Shown: positions 4,665-30,694 of the stretch, piece by piece
How the letters are laid out: each line of letters starts with the position of its first letter
Position numbering within the stretch: the first letter of the stretch is position 1
From: Minisyncoccota bacterium
GTDB taxonomy: Bacteria > Patescibacteriota > Minisyncoccia > Phycocordibacterales > UBA1006
Direction of reading: 5' to 3'
DNA: 64,000 nucleotides
Assembly: GCA_021209525.1 (NCBI GenBank)
Contig: JAJOIF010000004.1
Span: forward strand, 35,730 to 99,729
Program-made: the position numbers and the translations under genes
The notes under the pieces: model-generated
What the model saw: only the letters and a program-made list of their open reading frames with translations
What the model was told of the DNA's origin: nothing
The model's database searches: none

Positions 4665-6758
4665 CTAGAAATCAAGGAAGCGGTATGCTTGATCGACACC
4701 AAGCGTTGAAAGGATCAGACTAACAATGAGCCATGCTGCCATAACAAATATAATTCCAAGCACTACTTTTCCAAAAATACTGCTTGCGAGTTTTCTCTTG
4801 TCTGGACTGGCACCACCGGTAATATACAAGAATCCGGCATACATAAATGCAATAGCTGCAATTGGGAAAATGAGCGCAAATGCAAAATTGATAAGGTTTT
4901 GAATGAGAATGATAATATGTTTAAATTCACAATCTTCGAGACCTGAGTGTCCACATGGTACCAATCCTACTTCTGAAACTGCATATTGCGTATTAGTTGA
5001 AAAACCCGCAAAAGCTTGATTGCCGGCACGCGGCTCACCAATATTACCTTGCCCTGAACCTGAAATAGAACCAGAAATTGGACCAGTTACATTTCCTTCA
5101 AATGCACCGCTGTCAATACTGCCGGAGGTCGGACCAGTTACATTTCCTTCAAATGCACCGCTGTCAATACTGCCGGAGGTCGGACCAGTTACATTTCCAG
5201 AAAAGGCACTGCTGTCAATATCCCCTGACGATATTGACTCTGGATCTAAAATCATCCCTAAAGATGTTCCTGCAATAGGTACTCCATCTTCGTACACTAA
5301 TGCAAAATACTCTCTGTTCATAGTGATAGGAATTCTTTGTGTGCCGTCAATTGATTCATAATTACTAAAGAAATTAAAAGCAAAAGATCTATTACCTGTA
5401 CCATAGACACGCTCAGTATCGGTAATAATTTGACTTGTCCATGATGAACCGATACTAAAATCAATACGCCCCACTCCTGTACGAGGCGTGCGCATATCCA
5501 CCGCATAACTGATTACATTTTGAAAATCAGGCGTGCGGCTTATAAAGCCAGCAAATTGCTGACTTTCAAATTTTACATCAATAGCATTTGCGGGTTCTGC
5601 AAATGCGGGTGTTTGTTGAAATGAAGCCAATTGGCCATTTACATAGAGTCCAAGGTAATATTTTTGACCTGGCACCACAAAATTATCACTATGCTGTGTC
5701 GGATCATATGTTCTATAGTAATAAAAAGATGGTGATGAGAGTACTTCACGAATCAATATTTTTGAATTATGCTGCGCAAAGTTTGGTGTCTCGCTCAATA
5801 CTACAGCAATATCAATTTCTGATTGATTCCCAGGGAAATCACCTAAATCACCCTGCAAAAGAATATCAAAAATATAATCATCATATTCATCAAGTTCTAC
5901 ATCAATGAGCCATCGGATAAATGGTCGATAACTTACCCGAAAATAGGACCCTGATTCTGTTTCAGGAAATGAAGATGATTCTGTTTCTGTAATCTGCGTA
6001 AAACCAGAAGATGTTGTAGAGAGCGTTCCTTGTCCTGTTGAAAAAGGAAGTGGCCCAGGCACTGCAGAGGCAAATGCCTGCTGGCTAATAAATGACCAAG
6101 ATGAAGAAAGCGCTTCGCCCGGACTTTGTCGAAATGCATACGACCCTAATGTGTATGAATTAAAAAGTGTTCGAGGTACATTATTGCCACGTATGTATAC
6201 ACGAACTACGAGAGGTGTATTTTGAGGTAATATAGCTGCAGGATTAAGGCTATTGTCAGCACGCACACCACGTTCATCAATTACAATAGCATCAAGTGGT
6301 TGAATGGAGGATCGGAATTGAATAACATTATCACCATTCACATCAAATGCCGCGGCAATGGGAACTTCATGAATACGGTGCCATAATTCCCCTTGCATAT
6401 CTTCGAGATGGAATTCTAATACATAATTTTGAGCAAGAGCAGCATCGGCATAATAAATAGCCGGAGATACAGCAATATAATTTTCAAAAACCTCGGCAGT
6501 GAATACAGTACCATTTGCTTGCTGTTGCGTATGCAAGAAATTTGTATCCGGAGTAATAAAACGATGTCCCGTTTGTAATTTTTGAGGAACTTGAAAACCT
6601 TGCGTATTTGCACCTGTCCAATCAATGGTGATAAGGTCAGTTGGCAATGTTGATTGCGCATGCACATAGCCGCCGATCACACCAAAAATCGCAACGCATG
6701 CAACTGCTAGCAAGAATCCTTTTTTGAAAAATGTAGTAATGAAAGAATGAGATGACAT
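4665..6758 (-). CDS. Large secreted surface protein (697 aa) with 17-aa tandem repeats and the same C-terminal double-TM 'pilin-like' domain
   Basis: Signal peptide, large extracellular region, repeats TSGSIDSGAFEGNVTGP. C-terminal FALIFPIAAIAFMYAGFLYITGGASPDKRKLASSIFGKVVLGIIFVMAAWLIVSLILSTLG. Confidence 0.6.
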   Translation of the reverse strand: MSSHSFITTFFKKGFLLAVACVAIFGVIGGYVHAQSTLPTDLITIDWTGANTQGFQVPQKLQTGHRFITPDTNFLHTQQQANGTVFTAEVFENYIAVSPAIYYADAALAQNYVLEFHLEDMQGELWHRIHEVPIAAAFDVNGDNVIQFRSSIQPLDAIVIDERGVRADNSLNPAAILPQNTPLVVRVYIRGNNVPRTLFNSYTLGSYAFRQSPGEALSSSWSFISQQAFASAVPGPLPFSTGQGTLSTTSSGFTQITETESSSFPETESGSYFRVSYRPFIRWLIDVELDEYDDYIFDILLQGDLGDFPGNQSEIDIAVVLSETPNFAQHNSKILIREVLSSPSFYYYRTYDPTQHSDNFVVPGQKYYLGLYVNGQLASFQQTPAFAEPANAIDVKFESQQFAGFISRTPDFQNVISYAVDMRTPRTGVGRIDFSIGSSWTSQIITDTERVYGTGNRSFAFNFFSNYESIDGTQRIPITMNREYFALVYEDGVPIAGTSLGMILDPESISSGDIDSSAFSGNVTGPTSGSIDSGAFEGNVTGPTSGSIDSGAFEGNVTGPISGSISGSGQGNIGEPRAGNQAFAGFSTNTQYAVSEVGLVPCGHSGLEDCEFKHIIILIQNLINFAFALIFPIAAIAFMYAGFLYITGGASPDKRKLASSIFGKVVLGIIFVMAAWLIVSLILSTLGVDQAYRFLDF
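5080..5232. repeat. 51-bp tandem repeat (two perfect units plus degenerate flanking copies) inside the 697-aa surface-protein gene
   Basis: ggaccagttacatttccttcaaatgcaccgctgtcaatactgccggaggtc at 5080-5130 and 5131-5181, with a diverged third unit. Confidence 0.85.
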
Positions 6759-6762
6759 AATA

Positions 6763-8052
6763 TTATGGTAATAATTGAACTAATCCTGCATGCATACGAC
6801 GTATTGCATCGTCTACGCGAACTCTACCTGATGCCGTGTCTTGAATGACAGCGCGCCAGAGTTCACGCGTCGCTTGAGGGTCTGGATCGGGCCACGACCT
6901 TGCACTGATAGCACTATTATAAAACATAAGCCATAGAGGATCTGTGGGTGTCTCTCGTAATAATGATCGCTGCACTGGTGGCACAAAGAATTGATCCCGA
7001 AGGTACGCCCCTGCAAATGGTTGAGCAAATTGCTGTGCGACCAAATATGCGCCTGGGATATTTTGAGACATACGACTTATCCCCACAAAAGTGAGACGAC
7101 CTGATGTTGCGCGTAATTGTGTGTCCCGCATTTGAGGCATCATACGCACATCAAAATTCAAATTCGGATTACGTTCTCGTAATAATCGCGCTTCACTTGC
7201 ATATCCAAAATACAGAGCAAGCGTTCCTTCAATGAATGCGTCTTGATCATTTTTTTGAGCGGTGCTCCATGAGTACGCTGGCTGCGCAGGATTTGAAAAA
7301 GTTGTGTAGAAACGAACCGCAGATGCTGCAACACCTCCTTCTTGAAAAACAACCACGGGTTCACGAGCTTCGTTACGCCCCACGAGAGGATTACCCGCTT
7401 GGAGCATAATGAGTTCAAGCACATCGGTCCCATGCGTAATATTTGCAAATGTACCCATTGCCACGAGAGACTGACGCAGTGCTCCTGCGTCGTTTTTTTG
7501 TACAATACGAGGCGCCAAAGCAAAAAACTCATCCCAAAAAACAGGAGGATCTACGACAAAAGAAGATGCGAGAATATCTCGGTTTACATACATAACCATT
7601 GGGTCAACCATAATAGGAAAACCAAGAACCCCTTCGGTGTCAACAAGCATTTCCGCCTGATCAATAAAGGTTTCGCGCACTGTTTCTGGTGGATAGCTTT
7701 CAAAAGGAATAGCAAATAATTTATTACGATGCGCAAGGAGTGTTTCATCGGTCACAAAAAAGAGATCAGGGCCTCTTCCTTCTGCAAGGGCACGTAATAA
7801 TTCACGGTCAAATGTTTGTGCATCTTTTTGAATATAGGAAACTGAAAGATTGGGGTACAAATCATCAATAGTTGTAATGAGCGGTGCCATGCCTTCTTGA
7901 GGTAAGGTACCCCACACAACGATAGCACCTGAAGGGCCGGCATTCCTCCCTCCTCCGCCTTGGCTCCCTGATGTTGCAAAAAGTGCAAAACCGATCAAGG
8001 CTCCTATTCCAAAAATAATGAGAAAGATTGTTTGAAAGTCTAATTTTTGCAT
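6763..8052 (-). CDS. Membrane-anchored extracellular solute-binding-like protein (ABC SBP family 1 fold)
   Basis: N-terminal TM, Gly-rich linker. Motifs IVVWGTLPQ..., GPDLFFVTD, MYVNRDIL are typical of MalE-like SBPs. First gene of the operon. Confidence 0.5.
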   Translation of the reverse strand: MQKLDFQTIFLIIFGIGALIGFALFATSGSQGGGGRNAGPSGAIVVWGTLPQEGMAPLITTIDDLYPNLSVSYIQKDAQTFDRELLRALAEGRGPDLFFVTDETLLAHRNKLFAIPFESYPPETVRETFIDQAEMLVDTEGVLGFPIMVDPMVMYVNRDILASSFVVDPPVFWDEFFALAPRIVQKNDAGALRQSLVAMGTFANITHGTDVLELIMLQAGNPLVGRNEAREPVVVFQEGGVAASAVRFYTTFSNPAQPAYSWSTAQKNDQDAFIEGTLALYFGYASEARLLRERNPNLNFDVRMMPQMRDTQLRATSGRLTFVGISRMSQNIPGAYLVAQQFAQPFAGAYLRDQFFVPPVQRSLLRETPTDPLWLMFYNSAISARSWPDPDPQATRELWRAVIQDTASGRVRVDDAIRRMHAGLVQLLP

Positions 8053-14316: not shown

Positions 14317-14507
14317 TTGTGAACTTTTTGTTTCGTTCTATGACCCATTATGTATTCAATTGATATACACAATCAGGCTTTTGCCTCTTCTTAACGCAGA
14401 AGAGGAACGTGTGCCAATTTTCGAACTTGAGCACAATTGTTCGTTGCGTATAGACACAACATCGACCAATATACTAACGGTCAAAGACTCGTATAGTATT
14501 GGCAAAT

Positions 14508-15968
<1,461 letters not shown>

Positions 15969-17412: not shown

Positions 17413-17450
17413 AGAAAAACTCAGAACAGTACTGTTTTGAGTTTTTCTTT
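17413..17450. terminator. Bidirectional terminator between convergent LOG and mazF-like genes
   Basis: aaaaactcagaacagtactgttttgagttttt. Confidence 0.55.
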
Positions 17451-17870
17451 TATTTTACCAAATTCTTTCTTTGGCACATTACCGATCTTTTCAGTGTATC
17501 GCTTTTTATCGATAACCTTTACTTGCGAAAGAATTACATATGACGAATTCTTATGTTTAGGGTTGTGTAATTCAACATCAGAAATCTTGTGGTAAAAATT
17601 ATTATCCTTGCCCTTTATTGTTAAGGCTGCTGTAAAGAACAAATTTACTATCTTTTTTAATATCAGAACCGGTCTCAGGAAATTATCTTTTCCTTTTTCT
17701 TCAAAACCAATATTTTGTCCGATTTTAGCAAACCATATTTCGCGAGGATTGATATAAATAAAATCACCTACACCTCCACTCCTTCTCGCTGCAATAACTC
17801 TTTCTTTGCGTCTTCGCCGCCGCGATTGTAGGCACCTGCTTTTCCTGAACTCAAAATTACGCGATGACAT
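17421..17870 (-). CDS. MazF/PemK-family mRNA-interferase toxin (start uncertain; annotated ATG overlaps MGMT by ~100 nt)
   Basis: GDFIYINPREIWFAKIGQNIGFEEKGKDNFLRPVLILKK... matches the PemK/MazF core. An AGGAG-like sequence near 17775 suggests a later non-ATG start. Confidence 0.5.
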   Translation of the reverse strand: MSSRNFEFRKSRCLQSRRRRRKERVIAARRSGGVGDFIYINPREIWFAKIGQNIGFEEKGKDNFLRPVLILKKIVNLFFTAALTIKGKDNNFYHKISDVELHNPKHKNSSYVILSQVKVIDKKRYTEKIGNVPKKEFGKIKEKLKTVLF

Positions 17871-18025
17871 GGAATTGCTGGATCATAATTATTTTTCATA
17901 ATCGTTCCTACTGCGCGCGCAGCTTTGGGGTTTCCTGTGGCGCGTGCTACTTCGCCATAGGTCATGACAGAGCCTGCGGGTATTTTTGATACGACATGGA
18001 GGACTTTTTGGGTGAAGGTGGGCAT
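17768..18025 (-). CDS. Methylated-DNA-protein-cysteine methyltransferase DNA-binding domain protein (MGMT/Ogt family)
   Basis: 85 aa with the active-site motif PCHRVI and a helix-turn-helix region. Confidence 0.75.
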   Translation of the reverse strand: MPTFTQKVLHVVSKIPAGSVMTYGEVARATGNPKAARAVGTIMKNNYDPAIPCHRVILSSGKAGAYNRGGEDAKKELLQREGVEV

Positions 18026-18077: not shown

Positions 18078-21000
18078 TCATACACATATCCAAAATTTTG
18101 AGGTTTTTGATTCGATCAAGCCTTCATCATACGGCTCAGGTAGTTCATCATATAAAACATCTTTGATGGTTACTAAAACTTTTGCTCTGCCTTGTTGAGT
18201 TTTTCTCCAATCCAAAACAAATGCTGTTTGCTTTAGTGTTTTAAGTAACTCTTTTGCAACTTTTTTAATTTCCTTGATTTCATTTTCTTTCAAGTCTTCT
18301 TTGTAAAGCAAATCAAAAATCGCAAGCTCTTCTTCGATTAACTCTTCTCTCACTCCTCTTTTTTCCTCATCATTCAAAGATTCAGCAAATTTCATCAAAG
18401 CCTCAAAAAACTCTTCAATATTTTTTGAGCCAGAATTATATTCTGAAAGTAATTTTTCAAATTGCTCTACTAGTTTTTGTCTAGTCGGGTTCAACCTCAC
18501 CAATTCTTCAAGTTTTTCTTTCAAGGACTGCTTCAATTTTTCTGCTTCTTTTCTTTTATTTTTCTCAAAATACTTTCGCAATTTTTCAAAATCAATCTTA
18601 CTCAAATCATATGGTTTGTAATCTTCAGAAATCACATACCCTTCAGCAGTAATCGCATTATCAAGAAGCTCTTCAATAGCATCTGCAACGTCTTCTACAT
18701 TCACATCTTTTCGAGTCAGAATTCGCACCCTCTCTGCTAAAACTCGATACAATTTAACCACATTGAAAAATTCACTCGCGCTTGGGTCTGGCATAATAGC
18801 CCCCAAAAGACTCGTCGCACGATTACTCATCGTCAAAAATTCGTTCTTTGATTCTTCATCGGTCAAAATAGCATCAACTGCATTTTCTATTAAAGCCAAT
18901 TTTTCAAAATCTACTGCTTCACCAATTTGCACAATATTGATTCCATATTCACTACAATATTTATCAAGCTCGCCCAAAACTCCTCGTAATTCATTTACCA
19001 GTTCTGTTTTTGGTTTTATAGGCTTTGCATCTTCATCACCTCGCGCTCCATAAATAGCCAATGCTTTTTTCAGACTTCGAAATACTCCGATATAGTCCAC
19101 AATCAATCCATTTGTTTTTGCGCCCCACACACGGTTTGCACGAGCAATGGTTTGCATCAGAGTATGATTTTTCATTGGCTTGTCCAAATACACCGTCGAA
19201 ATAATCGGAGCATCAAATCCAGTCAGCCACATATTACACACAATCACAATTTTCAAAGGATCATTTACATCTTTAAATTTTTTTTCCAAATCCTCATTGA
19301 TCATTCTTCGGCGATGAGTTTCTATATCAAGCCCAAGCTTTCGGAAATCATCCACTTCGTTTTGAGTCGAACTCATCACCATCGCAATATCAGGACAGTT
19401 TGGCTGCGTTTTCATTTTGTTATACATTTTCACCGCAGTTGGTCGATCTATCGCCACAAACAACGCCTTACCATCATTCCCTTGGCTGTTAAAATGTTCA
19501 ATCACATCACGGGCAATAGTGTTCAATCGTTCTTCTCTCGTGATCAAATGATATTCAGTATTAAATTCTCGTTCAAGCTTTTTCTCTTGATCATCATCAA
19601 GCTCAAAAGTTTCAAGCACTGTTCCCAAATCCTGCCCTAAACTCTCCAAATCAATCTGCAGCTCTGGAATACGGTTATCGTAATACAAAGGCACTGTTGC
19701 CTTGTCATCCACAGACTGCTTAAAATCATAAATACTGACATAATCTCCAAAAGTGCTTTTGGTTTGTTCTTCTTCGCCAGAAATAAGCGGTGTTCCGGTA
19801 AAACCAATAAATGAAGCATTCGGTAAAGCCCGACGCATATTGAGCGCCAAAGTGTCATACTGACTTCTGTGTGCTTCGTCAGTCATCGCGATAATATCGC
19901 TTCGCTCTGAAAGTACAGGAAATTCCGTCTCGCCTTCTTGCAATTGGAATTTGTGAATCAAGGTGAAAATATTGCGATGGTCTTCGGTTAAAAGTTCGCG
20001 AAGTTTTTGCACACTGCTTGCACGTACCATTTCTTCTGGTTCAAGCACTGCACCCACACCGGCAAAATTTGCATAAATCTGCTTGTCGAGTTCCTGCCTG
20101 TCTGTTACCACAAGAAAAGTATAATTCCCTTCATATTTTCGCAAAATCTTTTGAGCGAAAAATACCATAGAATAACTTTTTCCTCCTCCTTGTGTATGCC
20201 AAAAGACCCCAATTCGCCCATTGTTTTCTTCTCGCTTTTCAAAAGATTTAATCGCATTATTTACTCCCAAATACTGATGATTTTTCCCAATCAATTTTAT
20301 CATCCCTTTGTTTGTATCTTGAAACAATACAAAGTTTTCAATAATATCAAGTAAACGCGTTTTGTCGCACATACCACGAAGCAAGGTTTCCAAATCCACC
20401 CTTCCTTTTTCTTCTTCATCACTAATTCTTTTCCAATCAGAAAAATGTTCAAATCCGCTCGTAATAGAACCCATCTTTGCATCAAGTCCGTTTGAAATAA
20501 TCAAAAGCTGGTTATACCAAAACATCTGCGGAATTGTGTCTTTATAGTCTCGAATATTACCATCAAAGGCATCTCGCAAGTTTTTGTGCGCAGCCTTAAG
20601 CTCGATAAACACCAAAGGCAAACCATTCACAAACCCCACCAAGTCCGCTCGGCGTTTATACATATCACCCAAGATCCACATTTGCGATACCAAAGTAAAA
20701 TGATTGTTCTCTGGATTATCAAAATCAATCACACGCACCGTTTCCACATCACGAGTTCCGTCACCGCTCACCACATCCACCTTGACCCCGTTTTTCAAAA
20801 GCTCATAGATTTCTTTATTCGCTTTGACCATACTCATTTTTGAGCGGTCTTTGGTGATTTCTTCTATTGCATCATCAATGGCACTTTTTGCAATGCTTGA
20901 ATTCAATTTCTCCAAAGTAGTCCGAAGACGAGAAACCAAGACAACCTGACCCTGATGTTCTCGCCCAAGCTTTGCATCACCTTCATCAGTATAGGCATTT

Positions 21001-21092
21001 ACAAAATCCATTTCGCCGTCGGTACCCCAAAGCTCCGACAAAAGCCGGATTACGGGTTGCTCTATGAGATTGTCTTCGTTGAAGGGGTTCAT
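18078..21092 (-). CDS. hsdR: Type I restriction enzyme R subunit
   Basis: 1004 aa. SF2 helicase motifs including MTDEAHRSQY (DEAH), GGGKSY, and a C-terminal coiled-coil. Confidence 0.9.
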   Translation of the reverse strand: MNPFNEDNLIEQPVIRLLSELWGTDGEMDFVNAYTDEGDAKLGREHQGQVVLVSRLRTTLEKLNSSIAKSAIDDAIEEITKDRSKMSMVKANKEIYELLKNGVKVDVVSGDGTRDVETVRVIDFDNPENNHFTLVSQMWILGDMYKRRADLVGFVNGLPLVFIELKAAHKNLRDAFDGNIRDYKDTIPQMFWYNQLLIISNGLDAKMGSITSGFEHFSDWKRISDEEEKGRVDLETLLRGMCDKTRLLDIIENFVLFQDTNKGMIKLIGKNHQYLGVNNAIKSFEKREENNGRIGVFWHTQGGGKSYSMVFFAQKILRKYEGNYTFLVVTDRQELDKQIYANFAGVGAVLEPEEMVRASSVQKLRELLTEDHRNIFTLIHKFQLQEGETEFPVLSERSDIIAMTDEAHRSQYDTLALNMRRALPNASFIGFTGTPLISGEEEQTKSTFGDYVSIYDFKQSVDDKATVPLYYDNRIPELQIDLESLGQDLGTVLETFELDDDQEKKLEREFNTEYHLITREERLNTIARDVIEHFNSQGNDGKALFVAIDRPTAVKMYNKMKTQPNCPDIAMVMSSTQNEVDDFRKLGLDIETHRRRMINEDLEKKFKDVNDPLKIVIVCNMWLTGFDAPIISTVYLDKPMKNHTLMQTIARANRVWGAKTNGLIVDYIGVFRSLKKALAIYGARGDEDAKPIKPKTELVNELRGVLGELDKYCSEYGINIVQIGEAVDFEKLALIENAVDAILTDEESKNEFLTMSNRATSLLGAIMPDPSASEFFNVVKLYRVLAERVRILTRKDVNVEDVADAIEELLDNAITAEGYVISEDYKPYDLSKIDFEKLRKYFEKNKRKEAEKLKQSLKEKLEELVRLNPTRQKLVEQFEKLLSEYNSGSKNIEEFFEALMKFAESLNDEEKRGVREELIEEELAIFDLLYKEDLKENEIKEIKKVAKELLKTLKQTAFVLDWRKTQQGRAKVLVTIKDVLYDELPEPYDEGLIESKTSKFWICV

Positions 21093-21105
21093 ATTTATAC
21101 TATAA

Positions 21106-22209
21106 TCAATTTATTAAATTATTTAAAGCGTTTTCAGCTCTCTCTATTAAATCATCGTAAGTTAAAACTTCAACCCAATGAAAATAAGAAAGAAGCCTTC
21201 TTAAGTTTTTTGGTTCTGCAGATATAGTTTGAGAAGTACTATTTTTTACCAATTCTTTACCGCGTCTTCCTATAAGTAAAATACCTTTTGGTTTATAGTA
21301 TTTCCCATATCTATCTTCAAGTATTTCGTGACCTGTTTCATCATCTCTTTCATGAGAATATTCACTATAGTAATATTCCATATAACCTGTTAATTGACCA
21401 AGAGATTCTGCTAATTTAGGTGAAATATATTGTCTTTCTCTATCATCAGCTCTTAGTAATTCTTCTGAAGGTAGTTTTACTTCTAAAATATCTGATAATC
21501 CATCTATTCTTAAAAGCCTACCATCAGGATGACCACTAAAACCTGCATCTCTAAAATCTAAATTCTTATATTCAGGACCAAAAATCCATGGATTATTTTT
21601 TAAGAAATTTTGAATATCTGAAACCTCTTTTACGTTTGGATCTTCTATGAGTTTTTTAAATTCTTTTATTTTTTCTTGCTTCTCCTGAATTTTATTTTTT
21701 GTTAAACCTTTTTTTATTAAATCAGGAACATCTAAATCAGAGGTTAAGTAGCCATCTTCAAAAAGTTTTATAAGAGTTTCTTTTCCTTTCTCATCACTAA
21801 CAAGAGTTTTTAATTTTTTATCTAAATCTTCGTCTAGCTCTAAATTATCTTCAAAAGAAAGCTTGCCAGCAGAAACAGAAGAAAGATTTGCAGAAGTAAT
21901 AAATTTCAAAAAATTTGTTAAAGTTATTAAATTTTTTGTATCAAGTCTCACTTCAGAAGCGGGTACAAGTTTACCAGCTTTAATTTCAAATTTTTGTATT
22001 TTTAATTCAACAACTTGGTCCTTCTGACTTATAAAAGTTGCTTTAATTTGAGTTCTACCTGTCTCGTAAATAATCTCCTCTTTGCTCTGAAAATCATCTG
22101 AAACAACAGAGAGTATTTTTCCATTAGGAAAATCCGAAGTATATATTTTATCTTCATGTTTATTTGAAACATAATCTTCTTCTGTCGGATCGTAATTACT
22201 TAAGCCCAT
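21106..22209 (-). CDS. Hypothetical protein with a PD-(D/E)xK-like nuclease signature, embedded between hsdS and hsdR (possible Shedu/DUF4263-like defence gene)
   Basis: GHPDGRLLRIDGLSDILEVKLPSEE carries a PD...(D/E)xK arrangement. Tight coupling to hsdS stop and hsdR start. Confidence 0.4.
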   Translation of the reverse strand: MGLSNYDPTEEDYVSNKHEDKIYTSDFPNGKILSVVSDDFQSKEEIIYETGRTQIKATFISQKDQVVELKIQKFEIKAGKLVPASEVRLDTKNLITLTNFLKFITSANLSSVSAGKLSFEDNLELDEDLDKKLKTLVSDEKGKETLIKLFEDGYLTSDLDVPDLIKKGLTKNKIQEKQEKIKEFKKLIEDPNVKEVSDIQNFLKNNPWIFGPEYKNLDFRDAGFSGHPDGRLLRIDGLSDILEVKLPSEELLRADDRERQYISPKLAESLGQLTGYMEYYYSEYSHERDDETGHEILEDRYGKYYKPKGILLIGRRGKELVKNSTSQTISAEPKNLRRLLSYFHWVEVLTYDDLIERAENALNNLIN

Positions 22210-22213
22210 AATT

Positions 22214-23383
22214 TTATTTCACCTCAACTCTCCCGCCGACTAACTGCGGAATGAGGATGTCTCTTGTTTTTTGTAAATTTTGGTTTTGTTTTTCAAGATT
22301 ATATTTTTCAATCATCATCTCTTTTACATGTTCACCAAATTTTTCACACAAATCCACTGGTGGTAAATAAACTTTTTTTGCTGAAAATTCTGGCCAATGA
22401 CCCTTGTAGTCGTTGAAATAAATTAAATCTTTTGTTGCAAAATGTAACCAAAAAATATTTCTATAATTTTCTTTGCTAGGATAAAACGGCAAGACATTTT
22501 GAATAGCTGAAAACGGAAACATAATCAAATTTTGATAACATGTGTGATTTGCAAAAACAATAACAGGATTTTCTGTACTTGCATTTATACCTGGCTCATC
22601 ATTATGATAACCAATCACACCACTTTTCCCTTGATCTAAAATAGGAACATTTCCAATTGGTAAAGCTGTTTTATTGTCGTATTTTTTACCAACCGAAACT
22701 CTTTCAATCAAATCCTCAACTTTCTTCACCTCCCACCCATTAGGTAATCCATCTTTTACCGGTCTTACAAACCATTCTTTGTAGAGGGTTTGAGCGAGGG
22801 TTTCGAGGGTTTTTATTTTCTTTTGATTCACCTCAATCAAATCATCATACGCCGAAAGCACCTCCGCAATTTTCTTTTGTTCTTTATATTCTGGAACCAA
22901 AAAATCAATAGAAAGCATTTTTTCAAGACTCAAGTTATCTTGAGCAGCACCACTTGAAATAGATTGAAAATCTTTTTTAAACAAATCGAGCAAATATTTT
23001 ACAAATCTTACACCAGAAACATTTTCATAAGACCTAAATCCAACAACACTATCGGGAAAACATGCTGGTATTTTTAGAATAGCACTCTCAGAAATATTCG
23101 CCGCAATTGTAATACAAAGAGTATCAGGTTCCCAAAGTTTACTTTGAGCGAGTCCTTTTTCGTTATATGTTTGGGAATATTCTGAAATATAACAGTTAGC
23201 AGATTTTATATCTGAAGTTTGAATAAAAGGATATTCACCTCCATATAGACTTGAATCATTTCTTGGACGATGACGAGAGCGACCTCTATTTAATTCACCT
23301 AAATCGGTCAACCTCACCCTCTTCCACTCCGCCTTGCGAGTTTTCTCCCCACTATTCTTTTGTGTTGTTTGTGTTTTATTCAT
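22214..23383 (-). CDS. hsdS: Type I restriction-modification specificity subunit
   Basis: 389 aa with two target-recognition-domain halves and central/distal conserved repeats. Confidence 0.85.
   Translation of the reverse strand: MNKTQTTQKNSGEKTRKAEWKRVRLTDLGELNRGRSRHRPRNDSSLYGGEYPFIQTSDIKSANCYISEYSQTYNEKGLAQSKLWEPDTLCITIAANISESAILKIPACFPDSVVGFRSYENVSGVRFVKYLLDLFKKDFQSISSGAAQDNLSLEKMLSIDFLVPEYKEQKKIAEVLSAYDDLIEVNQKKIKTLETLAQTLYKEWFVRPVKDGLPNGWEVKKVEDLIERVSVGKKYDNKTALPIGNVPILDQGKSGVIGYHNDEPGINASTENPVIVFANHTCYQNLIMFPFSAIQNVLPFYPSKENYRNIFWLHFATKDLIYFNDYKGHWPEFSAKKVYLPPVDLCEKFGEHVKEMMIEKYNLEKQNQNLQKTRDILIPQLVGGRVEVK
23309..23383. repeat. 75-bp direct repeat, copy A (authentic hsdS 5' end)
   Basis: ~90% identical to 24201-24273. 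Confidence 0.8.
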
Positions 23384-23455: not shown

Positions 23456-24166
23456 CTAATCACGCGGTCCCGCTTTTGCGGGATTTTCGCTTTTTGGCTC
23501 GTAATTTCTTTTTCCTGTATAGAGTCGCCCAAAATCAAAATATTTATCTTTAATTTTATGCAGTTCTTCTGCGACTTGATTTCTCACTCCACAAATCCCA
23601 ATCTTTTTATTTTCAATTTTCAATCTTTGTAAAGGACCCTGCATATCAGAATCCCCAGAAAACAAAATAACTGCAGAAAACTTTTTTGCATCATCTAATA
23701 TGTCCATAGTCATCTCTACATCAAAATTACATTTTGGTTCTTCTATTAAAATACCTGGTTTATGTAATTCGTCTACAAGTTCTTCAATTTTACTTTTTAC
23801 ACCATCATCAAAAAGAGTCATAGTTTTACGCTGAAAAAACATTCCTTCTTTTATTGTCTTGGGAATATACTTCATTGGTTTTGTTTTTAGGATTGCACCA
23901 GTTTTTAAAATTCTTTTATGAAAAGCTTTTGAGTTTTTCAAATCTCTGGTATTTAAACCATAGTAAACTTTTATTTCTTGAATATTTTTATATGTTTTTA
24001 GTTGTTCTATCAAGTCTTCTATTCTAAATTTCCAACCCAAAACATCTTGCCAGTGGAACATATTTGTTAAATCCAAATACACAAAAACCACAGGCTCTTT
24101 TTCTAACCATTCTAGATAGTCTTCTCTTACCATAATTTTATTTTTAATATCCTGTGGTATTTCCAT
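23456..24166 (-). CDS. NYN-domain (LabA-like PIN-fold) nuclease
   Basis: VFVYLDLTNM... and AVILFSGDSDMQGPLQRLKIENKKIGICGV match the NYN/LabA fold. Confidence 0.65.
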   Translation of the reverse strand: MEIPQDIKNKIMVREDYLEWLEKEPVVFVYLDLTNMFHWQDVLGWKFRIEDLIEQLKTYKNIQEIKVYYGLNTRDLKNSKAFHKRILKTGAILKTKPMKYIPKTIKEGMFFQRKTMTLFDDGVKSKIEELVDELHKPGILIEEPKCNFDVEMTMDILDDAKKFSAVILFSGDSDMQGPLQRLKIENKKIGICGVRNQVAEELHKIKDKYFDFGRLYTGKRNYEPKSENPAKAGPRD

Positions 24167-24167
24167 A

Positions 24168-24272
24168 TTATTTTCTAAAATTAAATTTAAGTAAAATGCC
24201 CAACTTCACCCTTTTCCACTTTGCCTTGCGAGTTTTCTCCCCACTATTCTTTTGTGTCGTTTGTGTAGTCAT
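24168..24272 (-). pseudogene. Truncated duplicate of the hsdS 5' end (34 codons, MTTQTTQKNSGEKTRKAKWKRVKL... then stop) immediately upstream of the NYN gene
   Basis: Reverse complement of 24201-24272 encodes MTTQTTQKNSGEKTRKAKWKRV; the hsdS N-terminus is MNKTQTTQKNSGEKTRKAEWKRV. Its stop is 1 nt before the NYN ATG. Confidence 0.7.
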
Positions 24273-24276: not shown

Positions 24277-25746
24277 TTATAGTAATAACAAATAATCTAA
24301 AGGAATCTTCACTATACTATCCTCTGATAATTCTAAAGAATCACTACCAAAAACAATTCCATACTTTGCTCGACCTTTTGTTTTTTTCATAGTTGTTTGA
24401 ACTTGGTTTATTTCATTCTTTGAAAAACCAATTTCAAATACAATTTCTGTATTGTCTTTAAATCGAACAATAAAGTCCGCTCCGCCTGACCCATAATCAT
24501 AGTATGCGTCTACTTGTCCATAGAGTTCTTTTGAAAATAGTAAAGCCAAATAATCTTCAAGAATTTTTCCTTTTATATCAACACCTATTACACCACTCAA
24601 AAGACCTATTCTAATATTAGGACTCATAAAGAGGTATTTCCCACTTTTTTTTACTTGCTTATATGGTTGTCCGTATGCTTTTAATTCATAAAGAATTTCA
24701 GCATCAGTGAGAGCGGATAGAATTTTATTCAAAGTTAACGGAGCCAAATCTATTGTTTCCGATAGTTTTTTTATACTTATCTCATCACTATTTGCAAGAA
24801 GAAAAAGTACATTTGGGATTTTTACCAGAGTCTCTGCATTAAAGTCATTAAGCAAAATCAAATCTCTTTGCACAATATTAATCAGAATCATTGCTTTTAT
24901 TCTTTCAAGGGCTTCTGACTCGTTAATCATTTCAGCAGAAAATGGAAAAGAGCCTCTATAAAAATAGTCTTTCTTGAGATCGTTTAAATTTGTAATAGTA
25001 GAAAGTTTTTTAATAATTACTGATTGTAGTTGTTTTATTTTATCAAAAACTTCTTGAGCATTTTTGCTATGAAAAATTGCTCGAGCTAGATTTTTAGATA
25101 AATCTTTCTCTGGAAAGATATCTTTATGTAAAGTTAGATACTCACAAAACTTTGTAGGTAAAACCCTTTCTGTTTTTGACCTTCTCACCAAATCTTTGTT
25201 TTTTTGATTAAGGAAAATTGCAGAAGATCCTGTTGCAATAACAAGAATATTTTTGTTTCCTTTTGTTTTATCAAAAAGTAATTTTAAGAACAAATCCCAC
25301 TTTGGATCGTATTGAATTTCATCAATAAGTAAAAGAATTTTCTTTTTATTCTGCAATAAATTTCCCCAAACATTTTTTTCTAAATAATCAATGAATTCAC
25401 CCAAAGAAATATCTTCAGAAAGCAAACGGTCAACAGAAATATAAATCCTTTCATCTACCGTAGTGTTAATATCTTTAGATAAATGGTTTACTGGTTTATT
25501 TATTTCAAAAAAATATAATTGAGATAACAAGGTTGTTTTACCAACACCACGAATACCTGGTAGAATAATTATTTTTTCCTCTTCGGGTAATTCTCCTGAT
25601 ATAAGTTTATTTACATATTTTTGTAACATTAAATAAGAGGAACGAGTTTTTCTCTTTTTCCCTTCAGGTGTTTGAAAGTAGCTTTTTAGATATTGATCTA
25701 AATTTGACTTCCATTCGATATAGAATTTTTCAATATTTTTGTTCAT
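24277..25746 (-). CDS. AAA+ ATPase (archaeal-ATPase/AAA_14 + DUF4143-like) embedded in the type I R-M operon
   Basis: Walker A ILPGIRGVGKTTLLSQL, Walker B LLIDEIQY. Confidence 0.65.
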   Translation of the reverse strand: MNKNIEKFYIEWKSNLDQYLKSYFQTPEGKKRKTRSSYLMLQKYVNKLISGELPEEEKIIILPGIRGVGKTTLLSQLYFFEINKPVNHLSKDINTTVDERIYISVDRLLSEDISLGEFIDYLEKNVWGNLLQNKKKILLLIDEIQYDPKWDLFLKLLFDKTKGNKNILVIATGSSAIFLNQKNKDLVRRSKTERVLPTKFCEYLTLHKDIFPEKDLSKNLARAIFHSKNAQEVFDKIKQLQSVIIKKLSTITNLNDLKKDYFYRGSFPFSAEMINESEALERIKAMILINIVQRDLILLNDFNAETLVKIPNVLFLLANSDEISIKKLSETIDLAPLTLNKILSALTDAEILYELKAYGQPYKQVKKSGKYLFMSPNIRIGLLSGVIGVDIKGKILEDYLALLFSKELYGQVDAYYDYGSGGADFIVRFKDNTEIVFEIGFSKNEINQVQTTMKKTKGRAKYGIVFGSDSLELSEDSIVKIPLDYLLLL

Positions 25747-25979
25747 ATTACAATATAATCATATCACATTTCTGATTATATCCTAGTGTTTTCAAAAAGT
25801 AAATACCCTTTATATCCTTATTTTAAAGAGTTTTTAACACATTTCTGATATTGAGTTTTTGGCATTTCACTTTTTATATGATTTCGTATAAAAAGTGAAA
25901 TACCAAAAATGTGTATAATTATACATAAACTATACACATTTTATACATATTCTGATTTTGAATTGTAAAATAAGGCTTT

Positions 25980-27497
25980 TTACAGTATTTTCTTCAGATT
26001 TTCTTTGATTTTCTTTTCTAAAACCGCTGATTCTTTAAACAGATTCTCTAGGTCATTTGAAAGATTTTTGACTTTTTCTTGGAAATCCTCTTCTGATTCT
26101 TCTATTACTTCAGTACCCACATATCGCCCTGGGTTGAGCGAATATCCAGCTTCAGCAACTTCTTGCAATGTTGCAACCTTACACAGTCCTTTTACATCTT
26201 CGTATTTCCCTGCCCCGCTTTCGCCACGATACGCACGAACAATATTTGCAATTTGATCTATTTGCTCTGGAGTGAATTCTCTATGTGCTCGATCAATTTG
26301 TCGGTAAATATTTCTTGCATCAATAAAAAGAATTTTATCTTTTCTATTAGAATTTATTTTTCCTTTATCAAAAAACCAAAGTGTACAAGAAAGAGTTACG
26401 GTATAGAAAAAATTTCCACCAATCGCAACCATCACATCTACCACACCTGACTCGATCAACTTTTTTCTAATTTCAAGTTCTGTTCCTCGTGCGTCACTCG
26501 CAGAATTTGCCATAACAAATCCTGCGCGTCCGTTTTTGTTTAAGCTTTCATAAAAATGCTCAATCCACAGATAGTTTGCATTGTCCACTGTTGGAATACC
26601 AAGTCTATATCTTTTATCTTCTCGTACTTTTTCCTTGTCTACACCACTGACATTAAACGGAGGATTTGCCATGACAAAATCAAATTGCCCCACACTTTCA
26701 TGCAAATCTTCATAAAAAGTATTTCCTTGTTTTATTTGCCCTTCGAGTCCGTGTACTGCAAGGTTCATTTTACACAAATCGGCACTTATTTCTGATTTTT
26801 CTTGTCCATAAATTGAAATAATATTTTGAGTGCTGTTTTTGTGTTTTTTTACAAATTCCGCGCTCTGTACAAACATGCCACCTGATCCACATGCAGGGTC
26901 ATAGACTTTTCCTTGGTACGGTTCGAGGATTTCTACAATCAATTTTACAAGTGAAGTCGGAGTAAAGAACTCTCCTCCACCCTGACCTTCTGCCATAGCA
27001 AAACTTGAAAGGAAATATTCATAAATTTTTCCAAAAACATCACCTTCTACATCCATCGGGATTTCACTAAAAGTTTTAAGAAGTCCAATCAAAATATGAT
27101 TTTCAAGTTTGTTGTATGTTTTTGGTAATACGCTTTTGAGGTTGGGATTATATTCCTCAATTTCTTTCATCGCATCATTGATTGCTTTTCCTATATTTAC
27201 ACCTTCTTTAAGATTGAGTAAATATGAAAAGCGAGCGATTTCAGGAATATACATAATTCCTTTTGCTTGATATTCTTCAGGACCGATCTTTCTCTCGCGA
27301 ACCAGAGAAGCTCCTGTTTTTTTAGTATTCTTCAGTTCATTATCCGCGTGTTCAAATTTAAATTCAGCAAATCTCAAGAAAATAAGCCCTAGAACTGGTT
27401 GAGAATATTGATGAACGGTAAGACCAGAATTTGCTCGCAATGAGTTTGCAGCATCCCACAATCGCTCTTCTAATTTTTTAAGACTTTCTTTTGCCAT
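25980..27497 (-). CDS. hsdM: Type I restriction-modification N6-adenine DNA methyltransferase subunit
   Basis: 505 aa. HsdM N-terminal domain. Motif I region [10 protein letters not shown]. Motif [11 protein letters not shown]. Confidence 0.9.
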
Positions 27498-27506
27498 ATT
27501 GTTATA

Positions 27507-28181
27507 TTAAAGCATTTTTTCACTTTTTATACTAGTAAAACCTTTTGCTGTAATAACCAAATGATCTTGCACTTGTACGCCCAATAATTCCCCCGCCTTT
27601 ACGAGTCTTTTAGTTACTTCAACATCCTCTATCGAAGGTTCCAATGATCCAGAGGGGTGATTATGAGTAATAATAATACTCGAAGCATGTAATCGTAAAG
27701 CTGGTTCAAAAACTTCTCGTGGGTGCACTAAGGATGCGTCGAGAATTCCGACGGAAACAATGATTCGTTCAATTAATCGACTTTGTGTGTCTAAATAAAA
27801 AACCACTAGATGTTCTTTTTTGGAATCTTTAATGTCAGAACACAACAGCCAAACATCTTTTGGGGATAGTATTTCTACTTGATCATTTTGAGTAAAGCGT
27901 TTTCCTAATTCAATAACTGCAAGTATTTGTAATGATTTCACCTTACCTAATCCTTTAATATCTAAAAAATCATTCAAGGAAATATCTTGGACTCCTTTCT
28001 TTTGAATTACCCGGAGCGCTTTACGAGAAATTTCAAGCACATTAATCCCTTGAATTCCTGAGCTAAGCAAAATAGCAAGCAGCTCATAATCTTGCATTTT
28101 TCGTGTTCCATATTTTTCTAATTTTTCACGAGGTAAATATTTTTCATACATATTTAAATATATTAAAATAATCATGCTCAA
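27507..28181 (-). CDS. RadC-like JAB-domain protein (UPF0758)
   Basis: HhH-like N-terminus and JAMM motif HNHPSGSLEPSIEDVEVT. 10 nt upstream of hsdM. Confidence 0.8.
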   Translation of the reverse strand: MSMIILIYLNMYEKYLPREKLEKYGTRKMQDYELLAILLSSGIQGINVLEISRKALRVIQKKGVQDISLNDFLDIKGLGKVKSLQILAVIELGKRFTQNDQVEILSPKDVWLLCSDIKDSKKEHLVVFYLDTQSRLIERIIVSVGILDASLVHPREVFEPALRLHASSIIITHNHPSGSLEPSIEDVEVTKRLVKAGELLGVQVQDHLVITAKGFTSIKSEKML

Positions 28182-29168: not shown

Positions 29169-29768
29169 TTACTGTAACTTTTTAACTTCAAAAGAGCCTG
29201 TATTATTACGATCTCTACCTGAGTAATATTCTGTTTGAAGCACTCCTTCATCTTCTAGCTTTGCAGATGCTGATCCCTCATGTATATGCATACTTTCAGG
29301 TGCATTATCTTTTGGTTTGTTTCTGTATTGATAATGTATTCTAGCCGTCCCGAATTCATCGACATTCATTGACGCTTCAAAACTGAAAGATTCTGATGTC
29401 TCTGTTTCCAGATAGATAAGTAGATGAGTCCATGTTTGTTTAATACAAAATTTCTTTATCTGTATTGGACCGTTGGCATGATTTGAATGAGATGTTATGG
29501 TTCCAGACCAATTTCCGTCTATGATAGGAGTTTTTATACTAGCAATTTTGCGAATAAAATTATTTCTCCACAAATTAGTTTCGAACCACTTATGTAAAAT
29601 TCCATAAAATCCAATTACCGAAGGAGCTTCTATCCACCACGGTAAGGGAAAGATGTTTTTTGAAAATAGATATAATCCCCATGCAAGCAATATCGATATT
29701 ACTGCAAGATAAAGCGACACATACTTGTGTTCTTCTGAGTTTATTGAATATGGATGTATGTTTTGCAT
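29169..29768 (-). CDS. Predicted membrane effector: two N-terminal TM helices + ~130-aa beta-rich C-terminal domain (Cap15-like architecture)
   Basis: TM1 YVSLYLAVISILLAWGLYLF. Second hydrophobic segment PLPWWIEAPSVIGFYGILHKW. Start is 3 nt after the NTase stop. Confidence 0.45.
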   Translation of the reverse strand: MQNIHPYSINSEEHKYVSLYLAVISILLAWGLYLFSKNIFPLPWWIEAPSVIGFYGILHKWFETNLWRNNFIRKIASIKTPIIDGNWSGTITSHSNHANGPIQIKKFCIKQTWTHLLIYLETETSESFSFEASMNVDEFGTARIHYQYRNKPKDNAPESMHIHEGSASAKLEDEGVLQTEYYSGRDRNNTGSFEVKKLQ

Positions 29769-29770
29769 AG

Positions 29771-30694
29771 TTATTTATTCCAATTATCCCAAAGTTCCAC
29801 AAAAGCACTAATAGTTTTTACTGCATCATCTTGGTTCCACTGCTCCTCACTTTCACCAAATAATTCATGAAAATGGTTTTGACACATACATTGACCAAGA
29901 GCTAATGCAGACCAGAGATGTTTTAATACTGCGTGTACGGTTGTAGAATGATCACCAGTAAAGTGCTCATCAGGGACATTGTAAATTAATGACTGTAAGA
30001 AATATGAAGGCGCTACACCATCGGTAAGTTTACCTGTATCAACAAGATGATTTCTCATATTTTTGAAAATTCGCACTGTTGGCTTAAAACGCCCGCCTGT
30101 ACGAGTATCTGAATTTTTATCAACTCCATTTTGATAGTGGTGCTCTGGATAATTTATGATTCCACGATTTGTTGTGCGATGATAGAATTTAACACCCTCT
30201 TCCGCATTATGACTATTAGTACCATAGAAATAATCATATTTTCGATAATTTATAACAGGAACAATGTCGGCCTTTAGTCTTCCTGAAGAAGGTTTGAGTT
30301 TAATTGACTTATTACCACTTGTATCAACGGAAAGTAATCCATAATATTTAGTCAGAGCAGAAATGACATCTCTGCGTAAATCTTGCCAATCATAAACAGC
30401 ACTACCATATGCCTGATCATGAGCATTTTTCTGATCATAAGGAAGTTCGTGTGCATTATGACCAAATGTAGTTGTTAACTCGACAACTACATCCACATCA
30501 CTATCTGCTCGAATATTTGTATCGTTTTTATATGATCCCTGGAGATAGATTTTTACCGAACCATTACTGATACGATCTTTAAGTGGTGACTGATCATGTG
30601 TCAGTGCTGTTCGAATAGATTCATGAGTTGCTTTTGCTGAAACAGTAGCACCTTGATTCGACCATGTTGTTAGTTGAGAGAGTGGAATTGCCAT
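29771..30694 (-). CDS. Pol-beta-superfamily nucleotidyltransferase of the SMODS/CD-NTase type (candidate CBASS cyclase)
   Basis: GS-x9-DSDVDVVVEL gives GS...DxD. A downstream LKADIVPV supplies the third acidic residue on a beta-strand (the 'DIVP' signature of cGAS/DncV-like enzymes). Confidence 0.6.
   Translation of the reverse strand: MAIPLSQLTTWSNQGATVSAKATHESIRTALTHDQSPLKDRISNGSVKIYLQGSYKNDTNIRADSDVDVVVELTTTFGHNAHELPYDQKNAHDQAYGSAVYDWQDLRRDVISALTKYYGLLSVDTSGNKSIKLKPSSGRLKADIVPVINYRKYDYFYGTNSHNAEEGVKFYHRTTNRGIINYPEHHYQNGVDKNSDTRTGGRFKPTVRIFKNMRNHLVDTGKLTDGVAPSYFLQSLIYNVPDEHFTGDHSTTVHAVLKHLWSALALGQCMCQNHFHELFGESEEQWNQDDAVKTISAFVELWDNWNK

Follow-up and report, generated by a model that had tools for sequence, protein, structure and literature searches.

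A predicted Shedu (SduA/DUF4263) nuclease gene at the hsdS-hsdR junction of a Minisyncoccota type I restriction-modification operon

What is the gene that separates hsdS from hsdR in a type I restriction-modification (R-M) operon of a Minisyncoccota bacterium, and does its product act with the R-M enzyme or independently of it? The operon lies in a stretch of 64,000 nt (the window; contig JAJOIF010000004.1 of assembly GCA_021209525.1, positions 35,730 to 99,729). The gene, designated sduA here, occupies positions 21106..22209 of the window on the minus strand (open reading frame (ORF) listing, Pfam, PADLOC); it starts with ATG, ends with TGA at 21106-21108 and encodes 367 aa. An earlier note on this DNA had tentatively described the product as a PD-(D/E)xK nuclease, possibly of the Shedu/DUF4263 type, with a variable domain at its N-terminus. 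That description is supported by Pfam, PADLOC, Foldseek and a family profile and, as judged from its sequence, the gene between hsdS and hsdR is that of an intact Shedu (SduA/DUF4263) nuclease.

The note had proposed that its assignment be checked by a profile search for DUF4263 and by structure prediction followed by a structural search. In the first of these, Pfam PF14082 (SduA_C) matched aa 195-355 with 53.7 bits (gathering cut-off, 27) and an E value of 3.4e-14, over profile positions 4-159 of 159. Sixteen of the PADLOC SduA models matched as well, and the best of them (8.2e-27) also covered the N-terminal half of the protein (aa 6-211). No match to the 367-aa product was obtained from NCBIfam. 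A search of 5.8 billion proteins yielded 123 homologs, the closest 77% identical, and PF14082 was present in 122 of the 123. The named homologs all derive from the Patescibacteria/candidate phyla radiation (CPR), namely Saccharibacteria, Yonathbacteria, Microgenomates, Kerfeldbacteria, Adlerbacteria and Minisyncoccota. An identical sequence, MCD8563591.1, is held at NCBI under the title "DUF4263 domain-containing protein", from a metagenome-assembled genome of Candidatus Paceibacterota. Given the 123 homologs, nearly all with PF14082, and the exact sequence in NCBI, the ORF is real and not a chance one. In profile searches of the PDB, a broader family profile matched Bacillus cereus Shedu (8ti8) at 4.7e-35 and Escherichia coli SduA (8ps4) at 1.3e-15. 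The single sequence gave only a marginal match to E. coli SduA (E value 0.014), which was raised to 1.1e-7 by a profile of the clade. All of the testable characters of a Shedu protein were found, i.e. the DUF4263 domain, the active-site motifs, the nuclease fold and occurrence without dedicated partner genes.

The active-site motifs were examined in an alignment of 47 orthologous sequences, with a mean column identity of 55% and 52 invariant columns. The HPDG...DILEVK pattern that the note had reported from the C-terminal half was located in the translation at aa 227-230 and 240-245. Its first part is motif II, H227-P-D229-G230 (21520..21531, minus strand), in which P228 and the predicted catalytic Asp, D229, are invariant in the 47 orthologs; it aligns with VDFL of B. 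cereus Shedu (D249). The second part is motif III, D240-I-L-E243-V-K245 (21475..21492, minus strand), with the predicted catalytic Glu and Lys; D240, L242, E243 and K245 are invariant, and the counterparts are IEIK (E264/K266) in B. cereus Shedu and, in E. coli SduA, EVKKP. Motif IV is represented by Q272 (21394..21396, minus strand) in a GQL sequence, all three residues of which (G271, Q272 and L273) are invariant, and which aligns with TQVL of B. cereus Shedu (Q295). The Glu of motif I is probably E195 (21625..21627, minus strand), which is likewise invariant in the clade. Residue numbers for B. cereus Shedu follow Gu et al. (E204, D249, E264/K266, Q295); the numbering of the PDB chain is higher by two. 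The product of sduA is predicted from these motifs to be catalytically intact, and the first-pass reading, based on HPDG...ExK behind a variable N-terminal domain, had correctly picked out a Shedu nuclease.

The AlphaFold2 (AF2) model of the protein had an overall predicted local distance difference test score (pLDDT) of 72.5, with values of 80-95 over most blocks of the nuclease domain. When the model was compared with the PDB using Foldseek, the top matches were to B. cereus Shedu, 8ti8_C (E value 2.6e-5) and 8ti9_A (5.5e-4), both with a probability of 1.00, and these were the sole matches below 1e-3. They were followed by EndoMS (5gke/5gkj, E values from 3e-3 to 7e-3) and Pyrococcus NucS (2vld). 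A nuclease fold was predicted, and no match was found to an HsdR accessory of non-defence function, an outcome that the note had named as speaking against its assignment.

Three regions, all encoded on the minus strand, may be distinguished in the protein. The N-terminal domain (aa 1-115; 21865..22209), putatively sensory or regulatory, is modelled by AF2 over aa ~20-106 as antiparallel strands at aa 22-27, 30-39, 51-60, 65-77 and 80-90, and then a helix at 91-106. A helical linker follows (aa 116-190; 21640..21864; AF2 secondary structure, with low confidence at aa 110-125 and 153-168), and it is collinear with the linker of B. cereus Shedu, profile position 132 being aligned to chain residue 134 at the start of the profile alignment. 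The DUF4263/SduA_C PD-(D/E)xK nuclease domain (aa 191-367; 21109..21639) is defined by the Pfam match at aa 195-355, by Foldseek matches to 8ti8/8ti9 and 5gke/2vld, and by the PDB profile matches. When aa 1-170 served as the HMMER query in an exhaustive scan of 1.84 billion cluster representatives, 42 proteins were identified; the match was N-terminal in every one of them, and SduA_C and nothing else was found in 26 of the 29 that were scanned for domains. Since the match is always N-terminal and fused only to SduA_C, the N-terminal domain is a Shedu-specific module and not a sensor borrowed from other systems.

The characterised protein closest in layout is B. cereus Shedu (SduA; 8TI8/8TI9; 'Type 1A' of Gu et al.), an autoinhibited tetramer (Gu et al.). 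It is also similar in length (a 382-aa chain versus 367 aa here), and in both proteins an N-terminal domain of ~110 aa is joined through a helical linker to the DUF4263 nuclease at the C-terminus. From the linker onwards, as far as the C-terminal end, the two are collinear in the profile alignment, and motifs II-IV are conserved; identity in the structural alignment is only ~17%. The N-terminal domain of B. cereus Shedu is disordered in the solved structure, and the two N-terminal domains do not align with each other in sequence. For the sPC4/Whirly-type N-terminal domains of B. cereus-like Shedu proteins, single-stranded nucleic acid has been proposed as the cue (Gu et al.). A further difference is the setting of the gene, which in the window is a type I R-M operon in a CPR bacterium. 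The nuclease core also resembles that of E. coli SduA (8PS4/8PS5), a tetramer that senses free DNA ends (Loeff et al.), with alignment of the ExK, GRxx and TYDDL regions. No similarity to the clamp domain at the N-terminus of E. coli SduA was detectable in the N-terminal domain encoded in the window, so end sensing cannot be assumed for the latter.

The sduA gene is the fifth of six closely packed minus-strand genes, in the order hsdM, AAA_14/DUF4143 ATPase, NYN, hsdS, sduA and hsdR (Pfam, PADLOC). Directly 5′ to it is hsdS (22214..23383), which encodes a type I specificity subunit of 389 aa (Pfam Methylase_S; PADLOC Specificity_I, 7e-88, aa 24-384). Directly 3′ is hsdR (18078..21092), for a type I restriction subunit of 1004 aa (Pfam HSDR_N, SWI2_SNF2, T1R_D3-like and T1RH-like_C; PADLOC REase_I, 6e-186). 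The note had described a 367-aa ORF adjoining both neighbours, without giving the strand, and this was confirmed: 4 nt (22210-22213) separate the hsdS stop codon from the sduA start, and 13 nt (21093-21105) separate the end of sduA from the ATG of hsdR. A putative Shine-Dalgarno sequence for sduA, GAGGTGA, was read 9 nt 5′ to the ATG, within the last codons of hsdS (22219..22225, minus strand). The location of this sequence inside the end of hsdS implies that sduA would be co-transcribed with hsdS and that its translation is possibly coupled to that of hsdS. Promoter-like sites between 17300 and 28900 numbered 44, compared with 42.5 in shuffled sequence, and terminator-like sites 6, compared with 5.8; a separate sduA promoter therefore cannot be claimed, since such sites are no commoner than in the shuffled sequence.

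The base composition of sduA sets it apart from its surroundings. Its G+C content is 28.7%, and 13% at third codon positions (GC3), as compared with 38.4% and 35% for hsdR and a G+C content of 39.9% for the window. This difference indicates that sduA was acquired separately from hsdR, and fairly recently. The AAA_14/DUF4143 gene (G+C content 28.6%, GC3 19%) and the NYN gene are low-G+C outliers as well. DNA-level similarity to orthologs ends at the boundaries of the sduA ORF; no flanking repeats or scars of mobile elements were found around sduA. It is also apparent that the R-M partners have diverged further than SduA itself: among the ortholog loci, HsdR is 31-52% identical to that of the window, in at least three groups, and SduA 50-76% identical. 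At one locus (L002) the discordance is marked, with identities to the window of 76% for SduA and 38% for both HsdR and HsdS. Pairwise identities of SduA and HsdR nevertheless correlate (Spearman 0.63, for pairs that are not independent). Co-inheritance of sduA with its hsdR was rejected as a general rule, on account of such discordant identities (L002) and the GC3 difference; some co-inheritance inside the HsdR groups is likely.

The genomic contexts of orthologs were sampled at 17 genome and 65 metagenome loci, together with exact-protein contexts; the sampling was pattern-based and kinship was ignored. Neighbouring genes were classified by phmmer and tblastn comparison with the Hsd proteins of the window and by Pfam, and the counts given here refer to the 26 de-duplicated, informative loci with full-length orthologs. 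At 18 of the 26, sduA is directly after hsdS and/or before hsdR, and between directly abutting genes the gap is -14 to +6 nt, in most cases -4 to +4. Type II or type III-like systems adjoin the gene at four loci. One of these (L020) encodes a SduA that is 75% identical to that of the window, beside a type II MvaI/BcnI-like restriction endonuclease and C5 methylase, in a flank without type I genes; the others are next to Eco47II (L005), HpaII with a C5 methylase (L022) and a ResIII/HI_1054 type III-like gene (L023). At the remaining 4 of the 26, the available flank has no R-M genes; in L021 the ortholog is located among housekeeping genes, as are the distant relatives in L092 and L094. Five distant relatives share the N-terminal domain (22-29% identity), and three of them are found in type I loci (L089, L091 and L093) and two stand alone. 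The gene order in L089, hsdM-NYN-x-hsdS-sduA...hsdR, resembles that of the window. Relatives with a different N-terminal domain also occupy the hsdS-hsdR slot (L048, L049, L050, L055 and L056). Another gene (Fic, DUF4145-like or of unknown type) is present between sduA and hsdR in several loci.

Taken together, these data suggest that sduA is most probably an autonomous, single-gene Shedu defence nuclease, carried as embedded cargo of the type I R-M operon and co-expressed with it. The grounds for autonomy are that close orthologs occur beside type II or type III systems or alone, that the HsdR partners diverge, and that the composition of the gene is an outlier. Embedded defence genes are frequent in type I R-M, BREX (bacteriophage exclusion) and DISARM (defence island system associated with restriction-modification) loci (Payne et al., 'guilt-by-embedding'). 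An experimentally verified case is TgvAB of Vibrio cholerae VPI-2 (Vibrio pathogenicity island 2), where foreign defence genes are likewise situated inside an otherwise complete hsdM/S/R operon.

By analogy with E. coli SduA and B. cereus Shedu, the protein would form a tetramer that is kept off by the N-terminal domain and the linker. On infection, the N-terminal domains would sense a nucleic-acid feature of the invader and switch the nuclease on, and the D229/E243/K245 site would then nick or cut phage double-stranded DNA. No separate promoter is evident for the gene, and its Shine-Dalgarno sequence lies inside hsdS; it is therefore probably expressed from the R-M operon transcript, and would act as a second defensive layer, directed at phages that evade type I restriction.

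Several observations weigh against this interpretation, in whole or in part. Compared with B. cereus Shedu, the segment that separates WIFG from the motif II Asp lacks ~12 residues; the autoinhibition described for that protein, in which D249 is sequestered on a long loop, may therefore not apply here, or may differ in detail. The candidate motif I residue, E195, is one residue off the E of EKxWQ in other Shedu proteins in the broader alignment. The N-terminal domain, when folded alone (pLDDT 76.7), had no PDB match at E < 0.1, and the structural resemblances seen with Foldseek, to Pur-alpha, Sub1/PC4 and p32, were weak and below significance. Finally, the hsdS-hsdR slot is occupied in 18/26 of this clade, as against ~11% of Shedu genes overall that are inside R-M systems (602 of 5,499, type I systems included; Gu et al., bioRxiv 10.1101/2023.08.10.552793), and that frequency is not accounted for by 'independent cargo' alone.

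The frequency of the slot is also the first argument for an alternative, in which SduA is coupled to R-M as a functional accessory of the type I enzyme. It might be a guard resembling PrrC, i.e. a DNase held latent by HsdMSR that fires when a phage anti-restriction protein disables the complex. It might instead be a finisher directed to DNA ends, in which case the ends produced by HsdR cleavage would activate SduA, and restriction and Shedu would constitute a single two-step degradation pathway. The position after hsdS and/or before hsdR is shared by the window with the 18 close-ortholog loci, recurs in three of the five distant relatives with the same N-terminal domain and in relatives with a different one, and has been maintained over at least three HsdR groups; the correlation of SduA and HsdR identities, with the non-independence stated above, points in the same direction. 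There are precedents as well: PrrC is sequestered in EcoprrI, held latent by HsdMSR until a phage anti-restriction protein disables the complex and frees it; E. coli SduA senses ends; and KELShedu is a DUF4263 nuclease that requires a partner protein. If coupling were true, the repeated placement after hsdS would be due to selection for expression together with the R-M enzyme, and not to a neutral insertion hotspot.

Coupling of this kind is nevertheless considered unlikely. Close orthologs exist in flanks without type I genes (L020, L005, L021, L022 and L023), and SduA is far better conserved than its HsdR and HsdS partners, contrary to what would be expected if protein contacts were co-evolving. 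Additional genes are often present between sduA and hsdR, the GC3 values show that in this genome the two were acquired separately, and the characterised Shedu proteins defend alone. The comparison with PrrC is instructive in this regard. The prrC gene occupies the same position between hsdS and hsdR as sduA; for sduA, the likeness is one of gene position. PrrC is an ABC-ATPase anticodon nuclease that is almost exclusively embedded (Payne et al.), found almost only in type I systems and silenced by them physically. The product of sduA, unlike PrrC, has DUF4263 only, with no ATPase or anticodon nuclease domain detected by Pfam, and 8 of the 26 close-ortholog loci have no type I genes in the flank, so that the exclusive linkage seen for PrrC does not hold for the Shedu clade.

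It is very improbable that the protein is instead a NucS/EndoMS-like DNA-repair endonuclease, acting on mismatched or branched DNA and present in an R-M operon by chance. The Foldseek matches to 5gke/5gkj and 2vld are in keeping with the acknowledged distant relationship of Shedu and NucS, and the archaeal and actinobacterial NucS/EndoMS proteins do have a related PD-(D/E)xK RecB-like fold; their N-terminal domain, repair role and chromosomal core-gene distribution are different. The Shedu structures outscore EndoMS and NucS, whose alignment geometry is poor (template modelling scores of 0.22-0.23, root-mean-square deviation of about 20 Å), the Pfam and PADLOC matches are to SduA with no NucS match in Pfam, and the structure search with the N-terminal domain found no NucS N-terminal domain. 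In addition, the location of ~85% of the ortholog loci (22/26) beside R-M genes, the patchy distribution and the foreign composition are those of a defence gene and not of core repair. Equally little credence can be given to a decaying or inactive remnant, or to an erroneous placement in Shedu of what is really a solitary restriction endonuclease from another class: the low G+C content, the recent acquisition and the moderate overall confidence of the model (pLDDT 72.5) might be cited in favour, but the protein is full length in comparison with orthologs of 365-383 aa, its catalytic residues are among 52 columns invariant over 47 sequences, its Shine-Dalgarno sequence is intact and SduA_C is matched over nearly its whole length, and both the pseudogene and the NucS/EndoMS readings were rejected.

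Type I R-M operons had previously been reported to contain Shedu genes, and the domain of this protein had already been named by automated NCBI annotation. The finding changes little in that respect, adding one more type I-embedded defence gene to a pattern that has been quantified. What is mildly new is a CPR-centred clade with a much higher frequency of embedding: the gene occupies the type I slot at ~69% of the loci and adjoins an R-M system of some kind at ~85%, compared with ~11% for Shedu overall, in a sample that was pattern-based and took no account of kinship. This clade offers a convenient test case for asking if embedding amounts to functional cooperation.

The operon holds two embedded genes besides sduA, both on the minus strand between hsdM and hsdS. 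The first gene of the R-M set, hsdM (25980..27497, minus strand), encodes a type I methyltransferase subunit of 505 aa (Pfam N6_Mtase, 2.9e-94, and HsdM_N; PADLOC MTase_I, 6e-211). It is followed by the AAA_14/DUF4143 ATPase gene (24277..25746; Pfam; PADLOC candidate PDC-S01, 3.8e-24) and by a gene for a putative RNase with an NYN domain (23456..24166; Pfam NYN, 6.7e-16; weak PADLOC matches to NYN/HEC-09, 3.6e-7 and 3e-5). For HEC-09, no defence was observed by Payne et al. A homologous NYN gene is present at the same position between hsdM and hsdS in L089. At other ortholog loci, the contents of the hsdM-hsdS gap vary (Fic, Bro-N, DUF3800 and unknown genes). In CPR type I operons there seem to be two slots for cargo, hsdM-hsdS and hsdS-hsdR, with a changing content of defence candidates (among them NYN, AAA_14/DUF4143, Fic, Bro-N, DUF3800 and DUF4145-like genes).

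A recurring unannotated protein, with the N-terminal sequence ...LNTNEKQ(I/L/V)LEKLFQM... and a weak C-terminal DUF4145 match, is encoded between sduA and hsdR at several type I loci (L024, 2311-2846; L035, 6660-7517; L017, 293-1132), and a DUF4145 gene is situated directly upstream of sduA in L021 and L049. The DUF4145-like gene may represent a second cargo family that travels with the Shedu clade.

Two sequence features were observed in the hsdM-hsdS slot of the window. A direct repeat of 87 nt, with 85% identity, has one copy at the 5′ end of hsdS (23288-23374, codons ~4-32); the other is an orphan, located between the AAA_14 and NYN genes (24180-24266). The NYN gene is bracketed by these hsdS-5′ sequences, in what looks like a recombination or insertion scar from the entry of cargo into the slot. 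Between hsdM and the AAA_14 gene, which are 233 nt apart, there is a near-perfect 26-nt palindrome (25856-25909; 92% complementary, with a 2-nt spacer) that might serve as an operator, as a terminator or in recombination.

The operon, with its three embedded genes, is part of a small defence island near a 16S rRNA gene. The island also includes a pair of genes of the cyclic oligonucleotide-based antiphage signalling system (CBASS), a RadC gene and a MazF/PemK toxin gene. The 16S rRNA gene (14504-15959, minus strand; 1378.6 bits, the full model in 1456 nt) is ~2 kb from the island. Neither 23S nor 5S rRNA genes were detected anywhere in the 64-kb window and, with 16S present, the rRNA genes are taken to be unlinked. 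Downstream of hsdR is an ORF for a PemK/MazF-type toxin (17421-17870); its true start is probably internal, because the PemK domain begins at aa 43. An 85-aa ORF that overlaps it (17768-18025) has the DNA-binding domain of 6-O-methylguanine methyltransferase. A SMODS/nucleotidyltransferase-like gene (29771-30694; weak Pfam matches, 1.1e-4) and a gene for a Cap15 effector (29169-29768), with transmembrane helices and a cyclic-dinucleotide receptor domain (1.8e-27), lie a short way upstream of the R-M operon; together they probably constitute a minimal CBASS pair. A RadC-like gene with a JAB domain (27507-28181) directly precedes hsdM in the window. The same arrangement was observed in L012, where SduA is 51-55% identical and the two ORFs (5808-6476 and 6473-8044) overlap by 4 nt, which suggests that the linkage of RadC with hsdM is conserved in at least part of this operon family.

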